A stretch of DNA of 64,000 bases from Dictyostelium discoideum (lineage: Eukaryota): positions 2,240,001 through 2,304,000 of the forward strand of contig CM000154.2 of the NCBI GenBank assembly GCA_000004695.1, given 5' to 3'. The position numbers and the translations under genes are program-made. The notes under the pieces are model-generated. The model made no database searches. It saw only the letters and a program-made list of their open reading frames with translations, and was not told where the DNA came from. Below are positions 18,354-26,526 of this stretch, one piece after another. Each line of letters begins with the position of its first letter. Positions within the stretch are counted from its first letter, which is position 1.

Positions 18354-18517
18354 TTATAAAAATACATCATTATCTTCATTATCAAAAACGCTAGTATTTA
18401 ATTTTCCAGTTGCCTCGCTGACATTCTTTGAAATTGTGGTTGTTGAAATTCTATTTTGTCCTTCAATATCGATATCATTATTATTATTTTCTATTTTATT
18501 TACATTATTTTTATCTA

Positions 18518-18581
<64 letters not shown>

Positions 18582-18632
18582 TATTTGATGTATTTTAACT
18601 TCTTGTTTTTCATTATTATTTTTAATATCCTT

Positions 18633-18665
<33 letters not shown>

Positions 18666-19643
18666 ATTGTTATTTAAATTTTCAAATCTTCTTAAATGAA
18701 CTTCAATATGAATATTAAGTTCATCAGATCTTGAAAGATAGGAGAAATCACCACCACTTTTTAAGAGGGCAGTTTTAGCATTTGGATAATATTTATAAAC
18801 CTCTTCACGTAATTTCTCGGGTATAGTTGAATCTAAACAATCAATGATTGTTATATTATCCATTAGACCACCTGATGGATTTAATAGACTTACAGGTGAA
18901 CAGTTTAAAGTTAAACGTGATGCCAATTCATTTTGATTTAAAGTTTCCAATTGATCAACCATGAAATCTACAGCTTCTCTCGTTTCATTATCTAATAAAC
19001 CTGATGGGAAATTATTTAAAATGATCTTTTTCAATAGAAATTCTGGTAATAATGAAAATAATGATGATCCAATTGAATTGTCATAAAAGTATTGAGTATC
19101 TGAGAATGTGTTATTCAATATTAATGATAATACACGAGATGGTTTACTTTGATAAAAACATTGTGCTAAATATCCACCTAATGATGATCCAAATAAATGA
19201 ACTGGTTTATCTAATTCTAATCTATCTAAAAATCTTTCAAATCCTTTACACCATCCTGATAATGTATCATATGGTGAAAATTGTATCTAAAATTATTTTT
19301 TTTAAAAAAAAAAAAAAAAAAAAATAAAATATATATATATATATATATAATATTAGTTTGTGTATTTGGGTAAATTATACAACTAATAATATTAAAGAGT
19401 CAATAATTTAAAGTCACTTACACTAATAACACGATGGCCTCTAGGGCATAACATTAAGAATTGTTTAAAATAGATGTCAGCTGACCCATGGGATATGAAT
19501 ATAATTGGTGCATTGTTTGTATCTTTTGGACCATAATCATAATATTTCCAAATCTTTTCATTTAAAGTACCAATACTAATCTTATTTTGTGGTGCCCATG
19601 ATCTAAATAATTGATAAGGATCTGATTGATTTAATTTGGACAT
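18354..19643 (-). CDS. spg21: Maspardin (SPG21/ACP33) homolog, alpha/beta-hydrolase fold; 2 exons: 19422..19643 and 18354..19286; ~384 aa
   Basis: Exon 1 encodes MSKLNQSDPYQLFRSWAPQNKISIGTLNEKIWKYYDYGPKDTNNAPIIFISHGSADIYFKQFLMLCPRGHRVIS (human: [44 protein letters not shown]) and ends at GTAAGT. Exon 2 (acceptor ttttag) encodes IQFSPYDTLSGWCKGFERFLDRLELDKPVHLFGSSLGGYLAQCFYQSKPSRVLSLILNNTFSDTQYF...LLKKIILNNFPSG...NELASRLTLNC, collinear with human maspardin. A poly-N insertion lies near the C-terminus. Confidence 0.85.
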
Positions 19644-20285: not shown

Positions 20286-23272
20286 ATGAAAGGAATAAAA
20301 ATAATTTTAATTTTATTTTTAATACTTAAAATAAATTTAATAAAATCTCAAGAACCAATAAATATATTTATTAAAAATGGTGATGATCTTTGTAAAATTA
20401 ATAATTATTTAATACCATTTTCAAATTCAACCTTACCAATAATTTTAAACATTCAGAATGGAAATTATTATTCAACATGTAAAATAATAATAAATAATAT
20501 AAATAATTTAACTATAATACCCAATAATAATAAAAATAATAATAATAATAATGATAATAATGATAATAAAAATAATAATATTAATTTGATTGATATTGAA
20601 TTTGATTTTAAAGATTCAAATATTGAATTTTTAGAAATTAATTTTAAAAATCAAAATAATAGTAAAATTAATATTGAAAGTAGTAGTATAATATTAAGTG
20701 ATAGTAAATTAATATTAGGGGTATATTTTGAAAGTTTAAAAAGTTTTTTAAGAATTAATAATTCAATTATTAGTGATTCAGTATTTGTAATTTATAATTC
20801 AACAGTTTTAATTGATAATTCAACGATTAAATTCAATGAAATTTTTCAATATATAATAACGGCGACTAATACTACTACATCTTATTCATTATTACTTTAC
20901 AGTATATTTTCACAAAGTGAAACAAATATATCAATTAAAAATGGAATAATTGAATCAAATGGTTATTATAATAGTAATTTACAATTATTTAGTGATGGTA
21001 TTGAAGATTTAACAAATTCAATAACAATTGAAAATATAATAATTAAAGGATTTTCAAATAGTAAATTATTAATTGAAGCAAATGGAAATCAATTAATTAT
21101 TACAAATATTACCATAACAAATTGTAATTCAATAGTATTCATTTCAACTCAATCAATTCAATCAATTACAATAAATGGTATATTATTAATTGGAAATAAA
21201 AATTTTATATTAATTTATATAAATAAACTTTGTAATTTAAATATAAAAAATTTATTAACTAGTTGTGATAATGGTGTAAATAAAAATTCAGCATTAATTA
21301 AAAGTAGTGAATATATTGAACTTAATAATAATAATAATAATAATAATACAACAAATTATCAAATAAATATTAGTAATTCAAAATTACATTGTTTTGGAAA
21401 TTCAATTTTTAAAAGTTCAGAAATTAAAATTGAAAATGTTTCAATTTTAACGAATCCATTATTTCAAATTGATGATAGTTTTTTCATATTAAATAATAGT
21501 GATTTAAATATGAAATCAAGTTCAATAGTTTCAATTAGTTATTTTAAAGTATTGAGTGATTATTTCTTTCAACTTGAAAATCAATCAAATTTAGTAATTG
21601 ATAATTGTACATTTACAAACAGTACATCTGGAATGATATCAGCAATCAATAAATCTAAAGTATTATTATCAAGTATAGTTATTAATAATATTCAATTAGA
21701 TAATATACCATTTTTTAATATTAATAATTATTCACAATTAGTGATATCAAATAGTAGTAGTAGTAGTAGTAATCAATACAATGGTGTGATTATTGGTTTA
21801 AATATTAAAAAATATTATGGAACCAATTCACCATTAATTCTATCAACTTCAAATTCTATAATAAATATAGAATCATTAGAATTATCAGAAATTTCATTTA
21901 ATTCAAATAATAAAAATAATAATTATAATGTAATTGCAATTATAAATTTATTTTCATCAAGTTTATATATTAAAAATTCAATAATATCTCATTGTTATTC
22001 AACAGATTCAATTTTTAATTCAAATGATGGAACTGATTTTTTAGTTGAAAATGTAAAATTCTTTCAAAATTTTATAATATCATCTCAACAAAGCACAACA
22101 AGAAAACACAACAGAATTTATTTGGTAAAAGGATGGGTAGTATATTTGAACTGCAGGTTGATAATGTGAATTTTACAAATGTAGAATTTAAAAAGAATTC
22201 ATTTAGTCCAATATTAGGAACCTATAAATCAAATAATATAATATTAAATAGTATTATATCTGAGGATAATTTGGGATCATTTTGGTTTTCAACAAATGAT
22301 AAAAACTTGATTTCAAATAATTTATCATTGATTAATAGTAGAGTCCCAATTAATTATTTCTTTGGCTCATTATTTTCAAAAAATATAACATTTTCAAATT
22401 TATCATTAAAAAATAACTATTTCTTAAATTACTTATTTGATATTTATTATGGTGATTTGGTATTGTTTGAAAATGTTACATACTTTAATAATAAAGTCAT
22501 TAGTACACAAGGTAAAGATAATTGGCCATTCTTAAATAGGTATATGTCTCCAATGGATTTAACATACTCTCAATTTAGATTCTTAAATAATAATCAATTA
22601 AAATTTAAAAATTTCAATGTAATTGATAATCATTTCTTTTCAAGCATGATTTATATTTATGAATCAAATTTTATATTTGAAATTGGTAATATTGAATTTA
22701 ATAAATTTTATAATTATTCAAGAACTTCATTTTTAATTTCACAACATTCAATAATAAATTTAAATAAAATTAATTTCATTTCAAATAATTCAACTTATAA
22801 TATTTTATTTGATAGTGATAGTGATATTAGTGGTGGTGGTAGTAGTGGTAATAATAATATAAAAGGTGAAAATGAAATATTTGGATTAATTTATACATTT
22901 AATTCAAATTTTACTATGGATTCTGGTATACTCTTATGGAATGATTTCCCATTTAGTAATGGTTCAATAATTAATCATGCTTGTTTATCATCATCAGTAC
23001 ATTCCTATACTCTTTCAATTATTAATTCACAAATTTCTAATAGTATTTCAAATTTTGGTACTTTACATTTAGAATTTTCAATGGATAAAAATAATCAAGT
23101 TTTATTAAAAAATAATACATTTTCAAATAATTTTGCAAAAACTGGTTCTGTACTATATGTAATTGGTTTTGGTAATATTGGTAATTATAATCAATCAATT
23201 TTTTATAATTCAAATAGTTTTCAAAATAATTCTTGTATTTTTGGTAATAGTATAATTTCTTCAGGTATTTAT

Positions 23273-23304
<32 letters not shown>

Positions 23305-25121
23305 CCAAATAATAAAATAAAGGTATTATTTAATAAATAATTAATTAATAAAAATTTATTTTATAATTAGGAATTCCAAAAATTTTCCCAATTGAAAAAA
23401 TTATTGTTTATGGTGGTGACCAAATTGAAATTAATTTTCCATTTATTGATTATTTTAATAATCCAATTGATTATATTCCAGGTGTAAAAAATTTATCAAT
23501 ATCAATTTTAAATCCTTCAAATTCACCAAATCGTATAGATCAAGTTTTTATTCCACCAAATGTAATATCTGGAATAGGTACAATTTTTTATACATTTAAT
23601 GTTAGTAAAGAGGTTGAATTTAAAATTTTTTTTTTAAATTTTCAAGATTTAAATCCAATTAAAGTAAATGTAATAGGTTGTTCACCTTTTACTTTTCCTG
23701 ATAAACAAAAGGGTTGTTCTTTTTGTCTAATTGGTTCAACTGTTAAAAAAAGATATTATTATGATGATGATGATCTTATTGAACCTTGCAAAATATGTCC
23801 AGATAGTTTAACTTGTGAGAATGGAGATGTTTATTCCCATGTTGGTTATTATTTAATTAATCAAGATGTATCATTGGTTTACCAATGTGCATTAGATATG
23901 TGTTTAGAAAATAATCAATGTTCAAATAAAAATAATTATGGTGATTTATGTTTTGAGTGTATTGATAATGATGGAAATCAAGTTGTTTCAAAAAATGGTA
24001 TTCAATGTTGTTCAAAATTTATAGGTTGGTTAATAATTCCAATTATTTTAATTTATTTAATATTTGGTTTAATTCTATCTTATATAAAATATACAGTATT
24101 TAATAGTTTATTATGTAAATCCATATTATTTATTCAAATTAATTCAGTGATTTTCTTTCCTTATAGTGGTATTTATTTTTTACCATTATTTAGAGGTTCA
24201 CTTGATATGATTGATGGTATTTGTTTATCAAAGAATTTAAACTATATTGGCAAAGTATACTTGTCATATTTAATAATAATTTTATTATTTATAATTGGTT
24301 CAACTGATATAACAATTAAGTTATTTATTAAAATTTATCAAATATTTTTTAAAAAATCTAAAGAGTCAACAGTATTACCAAATTTCATAGTAAAAATATT
24401 AATAAGAAAAAAACAATATGGAGAATTTAATTATAAAATGAAATCTTTGTTTTCACTATTTCAAATTTTATTAATACCATTACTTTTCAATTCAATTTCA
24501 ATGTTGGTAAAGAAAAATATTCTTTACAACACCACTCGATTAATAATGGATTTTTCAATAATCAATTCTTCAAATCGAACCTTTTTACAAATTATTTCAA
24601 TACTTTTATTAATAATAATTGGTTTTTTTATTTTATTAGTGGTTTTAATATTTAATTTAAAAACATTTTTAAAATTAGTTAAAAAATTAGGACTAAATCT
24701 AAAATTCATTGAAAAATTTAAATTACAATCAAAATTAATTCAAATTTTAAATACTGACACAAGTAATAGTATATATAGGAATCAATTTAAATGGTGGAAT
24801 GTTATTGAAATTATTAGATCAATTATATTTTCCATTCTTTCAATATCAATGATATTCTCACCAAATTATTATATGTTAATTATAGTTTCAATACAGTTTA
24901 TCTATACATTCCTTTATATATTTTTTGAACCATTGCAAAAGAAATATTATTTTAAAAATATTTTAATTAATTTTTCCCAATTAATAATTTTTACAATTTT
25001 TGGTTCCTCTTTATTTCAAACATTGATTTTACCATTTTTTAAAGGTTTAATAATTTCAATTTTATCTTTTTTGGTTTTTATTATTATAATTTTTTTTAAA
25101 AAAATAAATAAAAATAAATAA
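20286..25121 (+). CDS. Large (~1565 aa) secreted/multi-pass membrane protein: signal peptide, Asn-rich beta-helix-like repeat region, Cys-rich module, ~9 TM helices. Model: 20286..22124, 22157..23264, 23371..25121
   Basis: N-terminus MKGIKIILILFLILKINLIKSQEP is a signal peptide. About 1000 aa of N/S/I-rich degenerate repeats follow, with many NxS/T sites. The Cys-rich segment is GCSPFTFPDKQKGCSFCLIGS...EPCKICPDSLTCENGD...QCALDMCLENNQCSNKNNYGDLCFECIDNDGNQ...CCS. It is followed by 9 hydrophobic helices (IGWLIIPIILIYLIFGLILSYI ... LIISILSFLVFIIIIFF). Track ORFs 1 and 2 are joined by removing a 32-nt GT..AG segment (22125..22156), which restores the frame. Exon 2 ends G|GTATTT before a T30 run. 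Exon 3 enters at ataattag|GAATTCC in phase 1 and is open through the TTG-started track ORF 23874..25121. Confidence 0.6.
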
Positions 25122-25373
25122 AAATGAAAACATTTTGTAAATTAAATTAATTAAATTAATTTTTTTATAATACATGATGAGTACTTTATTAAAAAACCGC
25201 TGAGATGAAAATCAATTAATTTAATTATTCAAAGATTCATTCACAATTAAATATTTTTTTTTATAAATAATTTTTTCCATTTTTCTTTTAGAATTGGAGA
25301 ACGGCTTTCATTAAAAGGCTTTTACAAATTATTAACCGTAAAATTTTGGCTAAATTTAAAAAAAATCATAAAA

Positions 25374-25446
25374 GGGGATGTAGCTCAGATGGTAGAGCGC
25401 TCGCTTAGCATGCGAGAGGTAAAGGGATCGATACCCTTCTTCTCCA
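25374..25446 (+). tRNA. tRNA-Ala (anticodon AGC)
   Basis: GGGGATGTAGCTCAGATGGTAGAGCGCTCGCTTAGCATGCGAGAGGTAAAGGGATCGATACCCTTCTTCTCCA. A box is TAGCTCAGATGG, anticodon loop TTAGCAT (AGC), and the Ala identity pair G3:U70 is present. B-box-like GGGATCGATACCC. A T8 Pol III terminator follows. One U6-U67 mismatch in the acceptor stem and A54 in the T-loop are atypical. Confidence 0.8.
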
Positions 25447-25485: not shown

Positions 25486-25499
25486 TTAAAATATTGTTA

Positions 25500-26526
25500 A
25501 CATTTGAAAAAAAAAAAAACCGTACCGCGATCAAGAGGATACAAGATACACGTGAAAAAAAAAAAAAACCGTACATAAAAAACGAAAATGGACAACCACT
25601 TTCACTGGCAGAATGGTATACCACAATTCAAGACCAAAATCCAACCATCCCTAAAACGGAATTCCAATCATCTCTAAACTTAAGAGGCTACAGCTATAAT
25701 CAACTCTTCAACAACATACTGAAGATAAAAGACCCTAAAACAAGAGACACAATGTTTAGATTCCATGCCAGATGCCTTCCAATAAACTACCTTCACAACA
25801 AACAATGCCCACTCTGCAAAGAAGATATGAGCAAAGACCCATACGGTCACCTGTTCTTCTCATGCAAGAAAACAAAACAATTCATAAAAATAAATAAATA
25901 AACTCAAAAATTTCATCTATATTACCACAGGCAAAGGTAAAAACTGGCACCATACAAGAATTAGGCAAAATAACAATTTCATTAATAGAATAACTCCAAA
26001 ATTGTCACCGACAGCCAAAAAAGATCAAGAAGTGAATGCAGATTACGCCAACCACAGATTCCACAAAGAATACTTTGAATGGAACTATAAAGCAATAGAC
26101 TATGATCATTCGCATATAGAAACCTAATGGCCCTTATCCTCCACAACATTTGGATTTGGATTTGCAATCAAATATACAGTGAAGATCCTTTAACAGATGA
26201 ATCACTATCATACAGCTCCCTTCTAAAGAAATGGCACAAATTGGCCACTCTAGAATACATCAAAAAAGCAAAAGATCTGAAAAACTTATCAGCAAAAGAC
26301 CATAATAACTTCAAAGATCCTAAGATCCTTCTCACTTCAACGATCAAGCTAAGAAAAACAACAGCTAATTACTATTGTATTCCAGAATCATCTCTCCCAA
26401 ATATTATATCTTTTGATCAATTCATATGATTAAAATAACCCTTCAGCTTAAATGATAAGCATTTAAATAAATATTAAATAAAACTCGTATTAACACAGAT
26501 GGACATATATCAATCTTGTTAATCCA

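Follow-up and report, generated by a model that had tools for sequence, protein, structure and literature searches.

DDB_G0289049 of Dictyostelium discoideum, a probable surface protein gene with a CRMP-like nine-helix core and a broken reading frame

Three open reading frames (ORFs) follow one another on the plus strand between positions 20286 and 25121 of a stretch of Dictyostelium discoideum DNA (contig CM000154.2 of assembly GCA_000004695.1, positions 2,240,001 to 2,304,000; 64,000 nucleotides (nt), hereafter the window). This raises the question whether they form one gene, what kind of protein this gene would encode and to which family the protein belongs. A protein search gave a 100% match of the locus to DDB_G0289049, a hypothetical protein of D. 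discoideum AX4 from chromosome 5. We consider it probable that 20286-25121 is one gene with a single real intron, that it codes for a multi-pass surface protein of about 1560 amino acids (aa) whose core is homologous to that of the CRMPs (cysteine repeat modular proteins), which control secretion in apicomplexan parasites. In the reference sequence its reading frame is broken.

Gene structure, homologues and the public model

The ORFs extend over 20286-22169 (frame 0), 22133-23320 (frame 2) and 23874-25121 (frame 0), and frame 0 of the third is already open from 23371. An ATG at 20286 and a stop codon with its last base at 25121 agree with the extent given in an initial annotation of this DNA, which had joined the three ORFs into one protein of about 1565 aa. 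Base composition is extremely AT-rich across the window, with a guanine plus cytosine (GC) content of 12-26% in coding sequence.

To identify relatives, 1.84 billion representative proteins (50%-identity library, E <= 1e-3) were searched exhaustively with HMMER, using the last 583 aa of the protein as query. This revealed 27 proteins, the full-length ones being 1400-1650 aa long with the matched region at their C-terminal end. About 20 Dictyostelid proteins of this length, together with chytrid proteins, share the layout as single polypeptides. Members were found in D. discoideum (including DDB_G0272102/Q55A59), D. firmibasis, D. dimigraforme, D. purpureum, Tieghemostelium lacteum, Acytostelium subglobosum and Heterostelium album, while weaker matches came from the chytrids Spizellomyces and Powellomyces and from a GC-rich eukaryote. 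The comparison across Dictyostelia that had been suggested with the initial annotation thus gave paralogues and orthologues of the same layout. Full-length homologues keep the same module order in one polypeptide, which is in line with the proposed single protein, and their alignments cross both ORF junctions and every stretch cut by the public gene model, which argues against separate genes or a membrane region from a foreign unit.

The Dictyostelid relatives (DDB_G0272102/Q55A59, D. purpureum DICPUDRAFT_76333, T. lacteum DLAC_10607 and others) and the chytrid proteins have the same architecture, the same 13 invariant Cys and the same invariant residues in the transmembrane (TM) region, and Dictyostelid members are 25-43% identical to the query over the C-terminal 583 aa. 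In D. discoideum the same core is carried by at least four further proteins, less than 50% identical to one another; no paralogue lies elsewhere within the window. In the chytrid proteins (Spizellomyces SPPG_05139, annotated as DUF7630-containing), a leader, a beta-helix and a Cys module are combined with about 8-9 hydrophobic helices, and they differ from the query by an extra long cytoplasmic tail. All Dictyostelid and chytrid relatives are uncharacterised and annotated as 'transmembrane' or 'hypothetical'. Logan-only contigs of 5.7-6.4 kb from the GC-rich eukaryote encode a protein (P0026/P0031) that is about 1300 aa long and has a leader and Cys-rich modules, weak matches to TNFR_ELAPOR1, NCD3G and DUF7630, and the same motif YRDDFYWWD...RK. 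As motif and modules are shared, the family reaches past Dictyostelia and chytrids.

The second and third ORFs are joined by a GT-AG intron, which is also part of the public model. The splicing implied in the initial annotation therefore holds at this junction and fails at the other one, where frame 0 changes to frame 2 without an intron.

The public model of 1319 aa maps to the window as six exons (20286-20702, 20808-22139, 22196-23264, 23371-24113, 24642-24896 and 25990-26124). Exon-like GC is found in three of its five introns, and two of these three are also open in frame. The intron at 20703-20807 (GC 17.5%) is open in frame, aligns to residues of homologues and builds beta-helix strands in the structure model. 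The 56-nt intron at 22140-22195 (GC 25%) takes out a conserved beta-helix coil, as MGSIFELQVDNVNFTNVEFKK is matched in the alignment by NLFKFINCTTVNIEFTKFIG, a coil conserved in the family. The one at 24114-24641 contains 176 open codons (chance ~7e-8) and would delete four TM helices together with the invariant residues Q256, R275, C285, K295, F373 and D394. Furthermore, the annotated last exon is reached by crossing a tRNA-Ala(AGC) gene at 25374-25446, and it sits in a stretch of 35% GC whose product resembles the zinc knuckles at the C-terminal end of a non-LTR retroelement ORF. Since its introns remove homologue-aligned residues and its last exon lies in a retroelement, we judge the public model of DDB_G0289049 to be a gene-finder artefact which bridges the frame break and skips real coding sequence. 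That the six exons represent the true gene structure is very improbable: they are the deposited annotation and all introns have GT..AG ends, but homologue-aligned residues are lost from all three introns with exon-like GC, and about five TM helices are left, unlike in every full-length homologue. The ORF assembly of the initial annotation is closer to the truth.

Protein architecture and homology to CRMPs

The Cys module and the nine-helix core form the part of the protein for which a relationship to a named family was found. Nine TM helices were detected by hydropathy and in the AF2 model (pLDDT 71, pTM 0.66), in agreement with the number proposed initially. The residues Q256, F274, R275, C285, K295, F373 and D394 are invariant in the TM region of the family alignment, and the TM4-5 loop forms a beta-hairpin with the invariant D394. 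K-rich loops alternate with loops bearing Cys, N-x-S/T sequons and the beta-hairpin. Together with the signal peptide and the position of Cys and sequons in presumed external loops, this fits a topology with the N-terminus outside, nine TM helices and the C-terminus inside.

Only three residues before TM1, the Cys module ends. It comprises 13 Cys in 111 aa (C-x11-CxxC-x20-CxxC-x5-C-x23-C-x4-C-x5-C-x9-CxxC-x15-CC) with three CxxC pairs and one CC pair. A Cys-rich module with CxxC pairs had been recognised in the initial annotation, whose estimate of about 20 Cys in 130 aa and whose CxC pairs were not recovered. All 13 Cys are invariant in the 13-sequence family alignment, as is a 14th (C285) in the TM2-3 loop. 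These 14 Cys would allow seven disulfides, one of which may tie the module to the membrane core, if we infer the pairing correctly.

CRMPs have a Cys-rich ectodomain and nine TM helices with the N-terminus outside, and they have been proposed as contact sensors; rhoptry discharge and invasion require TgCRMPA/B, and mucocyst discharge requires the Tetrahymena relatives (PMC9815656, PMC9670195). The role in contact-triggered regulated exocytosis and the formation of a heterodimer via the TM domains rest solely on experimental work with Toxoplasma, Plasmodium and Tetrahymena (PMC9815656, PMC9670195). CRMPs owe their name to the repeated Cys modules, with EGF or Kringle domains, of the ectodomain. 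In D. discoideum, CRMP homologues have similar nine-TM cores and different ectodomains, with PbH1 repeats in the case of Q86I19 (PMC9815656).

For a CRMP profile, the core sequences of TgCRMPA, PbCRMP1, PbCRMP2 and TgCRMPB from S2 Table of PMC9815656 were aligned. The Dictyostelid alignment matched this profile in hhalign over 155 columns (probability 96%, E 3.7e-9). With chytrid members added, the match grew to 337 columns, which span the last Cys module to TM8 (98.7%, E 1.6e-16), and a local rerun of the chytrid-inclusive alignment gave 339 columns (99%, E 3.6e-18). Reversed or locally shuffled CRMP alignments used as controls reached at most 5%, with E 0.008 or worse. The last part of the Cys module aligns to the Cys module of the CRMP core and to Q86I19. 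Furthermore, the query contains degenerate forms of CRMP motifs, namely YRNQFKWWNVIEIIRS in comparison to YGFLxNGYxxxYWYWExxxxxRK, and EPLQKK in comparison to QPFDKR. Based on these profile matches and shared motifs we file the locus as CRMP-like, and DDB_G0289049 is, as judged from its sequence, a divergent CRMP-like protein. The initial annotation could assign the protein to no named family; the homology of the Cys module and nine-TM core to the CRMP core now supplies one.

With the apicomplexan CRMPs (TgCRMPA/B, Plasmodium CRMP1-4) and the Tetrahymena non-discharge proteins CRMP1/2 the protein shares the large external N-terminus, the Cys module directly before TM1, the nine TM helices and the presumably cytoplasmic C-terminus. 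It differs from them in having one composite Cys module instead of many repeats, and in the degeneracy of the motifs. Q86I19 (XP_643780.1), which PMC9815656 shows as a CRMP homologue and as an outgroup, resembles the query in its signal peptide, PbH1 repeats, Cys-rich region and multi-TM C-terminus. The Dictyostelid alignment matched its core over 157 columns in hhalign (94%, E 1e-7), covering the Cys module, TM1-2 and the loop with the conserved Cys. Q86I19 is absent from the single-sequence HMMER matches and, being too distant for them, belongs to a different subfamily. By inspection its Cys module is nearer to that of the chytrid proteins, and the query lacks the long cytoplasmic insert and the coiled-coil tail of Q86I19.

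Most other family assignments were not supported. No solved structure resembling the nine-helix core was found, and a PDB sequence search gave no meaningful match. No Pfam family matched the TM domain or Cys module of the query even at E 10, nor did the Pfam families EGF, Kringle, Ephrin_rec_like and GCC2_GCC3 match the query, the last of these having been a lead of the initial annotation. A 7TM or GPCR relationship, also suggested there, found no support, with no match to a family profile and nine helices instead of seven. For DUF7630 the picture is mixed: it scores at or below its threshold in relatives (27.0 bits in Spizellomyces with a cut-off of 27; 19.4 and 17.8 bits in others) and gave no match in the query. 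One of the 13 members matches DUF7630 and one Ephrin_rec_like, and some homologues have weak TNFR-like matches.

The ectodomain begins with the hydrophobic leader MKGIKIILILFLILKINLIKSQ of signal-peptide type. Homologues begin with leaders of the same kind, ending in KSQ or SQ, which supports the signal peptide proposed before. It is followed by a right-handed parallel beta-helix of about 970 aa. One stretch of the query matches Pfam Beta_helix (PF13229) with 26.6 bits, above the curated cut-off of 25.9 (E 5e-6), homologues score 50-83 bits, and in three-dimensional fold the query also tested as a beta-helix. The beta-helix-like repeats of the initial annotation are thereby borne out. The density of N-x-S/T sequons, also remarked on there, is exactly what composition predicts (33 sequons compared to 33.3 +/- 4.5 in shuffles). 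Between beta-helix and Cys module lies an immunoglobulin-like (Ig-like) beta-sandwich of about 100 aa, which had been overlooked. Long poly-Asn (AAT) tracts are present at 20520-20580 and 21310-21335 (plus strand) within the beta-helix coding region and in a neighbouring ORF at 18354-19118 (minus strand); such tracts are typical Dictyostelium low complexity.

Bacterial beta-helix adhesins and phage tailspikes (Vag8, pertactin, Hap, EtpA and the chlamydial Pmps) are about 10% identical to the query and similar in fold only, and the query is anchored by nine alpha-helices in contrast to the autotransporter beta-barrel of bacterial adhesins. The earlier comparison with Pmps found no further support, as the Chlam_PMP profile of GGA(I/L/V)/FxxN repeats does not match the query, whose C-terminus is alpha-helical; a chytrid relative remains below the Chlam_PMP threshold (17.6 bits compared to 20.6).

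Table 1 Features of the DDB_G0289049 locus, in coordinates of the window.
Feature	Position	Strand	Basis
Start codon and N-terminal signal peptide MKGIKIILILFLILKINLIKSQ	20286..20351	+	translation; helix at residues 2-21 in the model; homologue leaders alike
Coding segment 1, frame 0, residues 1-596 (signal peptide and first part of beta-helix)	20286..22073	+	open ORF
Frame-breaking segment, 50 nt, exact edges uncertain	22074..22123	+	three-frame translation compared with homologues
Coding segment 2, frame 2 (second part of beta-helix)	22124..23264	+	Pfam Beta_helix match, family alignment
Only genuine intron, 106 nt, GT..AG, phase 1	23265..23370	+	6.6% GC, stops in all three frames, long T tract
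Ig-like beta-sandwich, residues 991-1091 in the read-through numbering of the models	23371..23672	+	
Cys-rich membrane-proximal module, 13 Cys	23679..24011	+	invariant columns of family alignment
Nine-helix membrane domain	24024..25118	+	hydropathy, AF2 model, family alignment, hhalign to CRMP core
TM1	24024-24086	+	approximate
TM2	24108-24173	+	approximate
TM3	24243-24302	+	approximate
TM4	24432-24500	+	approximate
TM5	24582-24650	+	approximate
TM6	24792-24848	+	approximate
TM7	24861-24926	+	approximate
TM8	24948-25004	+	approximate
TM9	25032-25100	+	approximate
Stop codon after K-rich cytoplasmic tail (...FFKKINKNK*)	25119..25121	+	translation; homologues stop at equivalent place

Frame break and rival readings of the locus

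Family conservation runs in frame 0 up to '...FLVENVKFFQNF' (FFQNF) and in frame 2 from 'GKRMGSIFELQVDNVNFTNVEFKKNSFSP...' (GKRMGSIFEL) onward, and homologues read straight through. At the junction of the first two ORFs frame 0 and frame 2 overlap without an AT-rich spacer, and no GT..AG pair of suitable length was found between the conserved flanks. The GC of the break segment is not intron-like, and the break does not lie within a long homopolymer. The reference sequence as given carries a true frame break. Compared to homologues, the query has 13-17 extra residues at this place, and both the extra loop and the break are unique to the DDB_G0289049 copy. In the structure model the extra residues 601-612 form a loop of the beta-helix with pLDDT below 50. 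Excising the 50-nt segment 22074-22123 yields an uninterrupted frame of 1559 aa and leaves 25 residues between the F..N and NSFSP motifs, which is exactly the spacing of the homologues. Nearly identical strings, AATTT(T)/AATTTATTT, flank the segment, both of its edges carry a TTT codon, and it has the appearance of an insertion with microhomology. No second copy of it was found, and when public assemblies were searched for the exact products of ORF1 and ORF2, neither gave a match.

Three candidate introns at the break were rejected. The first, a GT..AG intron of 32 nt at 22125-22156, falls below a suitable length, contains 37% GC and would lose the conserved GSIFEL, a 50-nt GT..AG segment at 22053-22102 would remove the conserved F..N motif, and the annotated 56-nt intron would repair the break at the cost of the conserved coil.

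A comparison with four short-read contigs (L001-L004; 10 Sequence Read Archive (SRA) samples) revealed 14 differences from the window, all within 262 nt of the beta-sandwich exon (23376-23637). All of them are non-synonymous, and eight replace Pro in the window with Ser or Thr in the contigs, at columns where homologues have S or T and almost never P. Reference errors, a conversion tract or diversifying selection are possible explanations for this cluster.

Because the reading frame is broken once, the AX4 copy has either been recently inactivated or mis-sequenced, and we regard a reference error and a recent mutation as about equally likely causes. It is a serious possibility, though not the one we would bet on, that AX4 carries a pseudogene here which died only recently, with the frame broken by a 50-nt insertion or a 1-nt deletion in a low-complexity loop. 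This would account for conserved coding sequence on both sides of a break that no intron can bridge and that lies outside any long homopolymer, and for the eight Pro in the AX4 beta-sandwich at sites that are Ser or Thr in the other haplotype and in the family; in addition, the 50%-identity library lists no protein of the locus longer than the AX4 model of 1319 aa, and no full-length orthologue from another D. discoideum assembly. However, 4.7 kb are otherwise open in DNA of about 81% A+T, in which about 9% of random codons are stops, and any inactivation must therefore be very recent. Moreover, the 1.7 kb encoding the Cys module and TM core are identical between the two haplotypes, and the break could equally be an error of the reference. 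That the gene is in fact intact in the organism, with the frame break and perhaps also the 14 clustered differences as assembly errors, is possible but doubtful. In its favour, four independent short-read contigs agree against the reference at 14 sites in 262 nt and show no difference from it in the 1.7 kb that follow, they are closer to the family consensus at these sites, and 10 of the 14 are C in the reference and T or A in the contigs, a directional pattern compatible with miscalls. Yet the contigs stop short of the break itself, an error of 50 nt would be atypical as a sequencing mistake, and the contigs diverge structurally from the window at 25343-25347, which may indicate another strain and would turn the 14 sites into polymorphism.

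Recoding, either as a 50-nt translational bypass between the TTT codons at 22071-22073 and 22121-22123 or as a -1 frameshift, appears extremely improbable. The identical TTT codons around the gap and the exact family spacing produced by the skip would suit a bypass, but the segment is without secondary structure (minimum free energy -1.4 kcal/mol, z +1.08), there is neither a slippery heptamer nor a stop codon at the take-off site, and the edge repeat is what a simple insertion with microhomology would leave. To our knowledge, nuclear translational bypassing has not been described in eukaryotes.

Several points weigh against our reading of the locus as a gene for a CRMP-like surface protein. 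Due to the frame break, it may be that AX4 does not produce the protein. The CRMP profile is thin, consisting of four core fragments from a paper supplement. In contrast to CRMPs, the ectodomain of the query is composed of beta-helix and Ig-like domain and not of EGF, Kringle, MAR or lectin domains, and Dictyostelium has neither rhoptries nor mucocysts, which makes functional transfer weak. Searches of the literature for the gene IDs DDB_G0289049 and DDB_G0272102 and for DUF7630 found no papers.

Downstream of the gene, the tRNA-Ala(AGC) gene starts 250 nt past the stop codon. It is followed by an island of 35% GC (25494-26430) with ORFs similar to ORF2 of a non-LTR retrotransposon in its C-terminal part, where the zinc knuckles lie (weak zf-RVT match, E 0.012). 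The divergence of contigs L001-L004 from the window at 25343-25347 is complete and begins 27 nt upstream of the tRNA gene, which suggests an insertion polymorphism adjoining it. Such a polymorphism beside a tRNA gene is expected for tRNA-targeted retroelements.

Possible function and meaning for the family

What can be taken as established for DDB_G0289049 is its architecture, its family and the homology of its core to CRMPs, and from this we infer the remaining mechanism. The beta-helix would project from the cell, and the ectodomain of beta-helix and Ig-like domain would bind a ligand on a surface, be it a glycan, the substrate, prey or a second cell. The contact signal would then be passed to the cytoplasm by the nine-helix core, which may pair with a paralogue, by analogy to CRMPs, which are proposed to act in this way when triggering exocytosis. 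By this analogy, the protein likely functions as a contact-sensing surface receptor, and the receptor-like design seen in the initial annotation is the most reasonable interpretation. A channel or transporter core gated by the ectodomain, rather than a signalling receptor, is unlikely. It would be in line with invariant polar or charged residues in or beside the TM helices (Q256, R275, D279, K295, D394) and with the lack of a GPCR family signature; however, no transporter or channel family of Pfam matches, and published work on CRMPs favours a sensing or scaffolding role (PMC9815656, PMC9670195).

It may further be speculated, with little expectation that it will hold, that the Ig-like domain is a hypervariable recognition surface and that the expanded family represents a polymorphic contact-recognition system of social amoebae directed at prey, kin or substrate. 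If this were true, and the clustered differences reflected diversifying selection and not reference error, recognition would be coupled to a nine-helix signalling core common to the invasion machinery of parasites.

A beta-helix ectodomain on a CRMP homologue had already been seen once in Dictyostelium, in Q86I19. On the practical side, a public model that loses four TM helices and ends in a retroelement, combined with the frame break, would mislead domain surveys and knock-out design. According to the sequence comparisons, the family is CRMP-like, is expanded in social amoebae and occurs also in chytrid fungi. As the same core is found in both groups, the CRMP core is old and not tied to the secretory organelles of alveolates. 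The main value of the locus is thus that it exposes a tractable amoebal family with a CRMP core and flags a faulty public gene model, which opens a CRMP-like core to study in a genetically easy, free-living organism.

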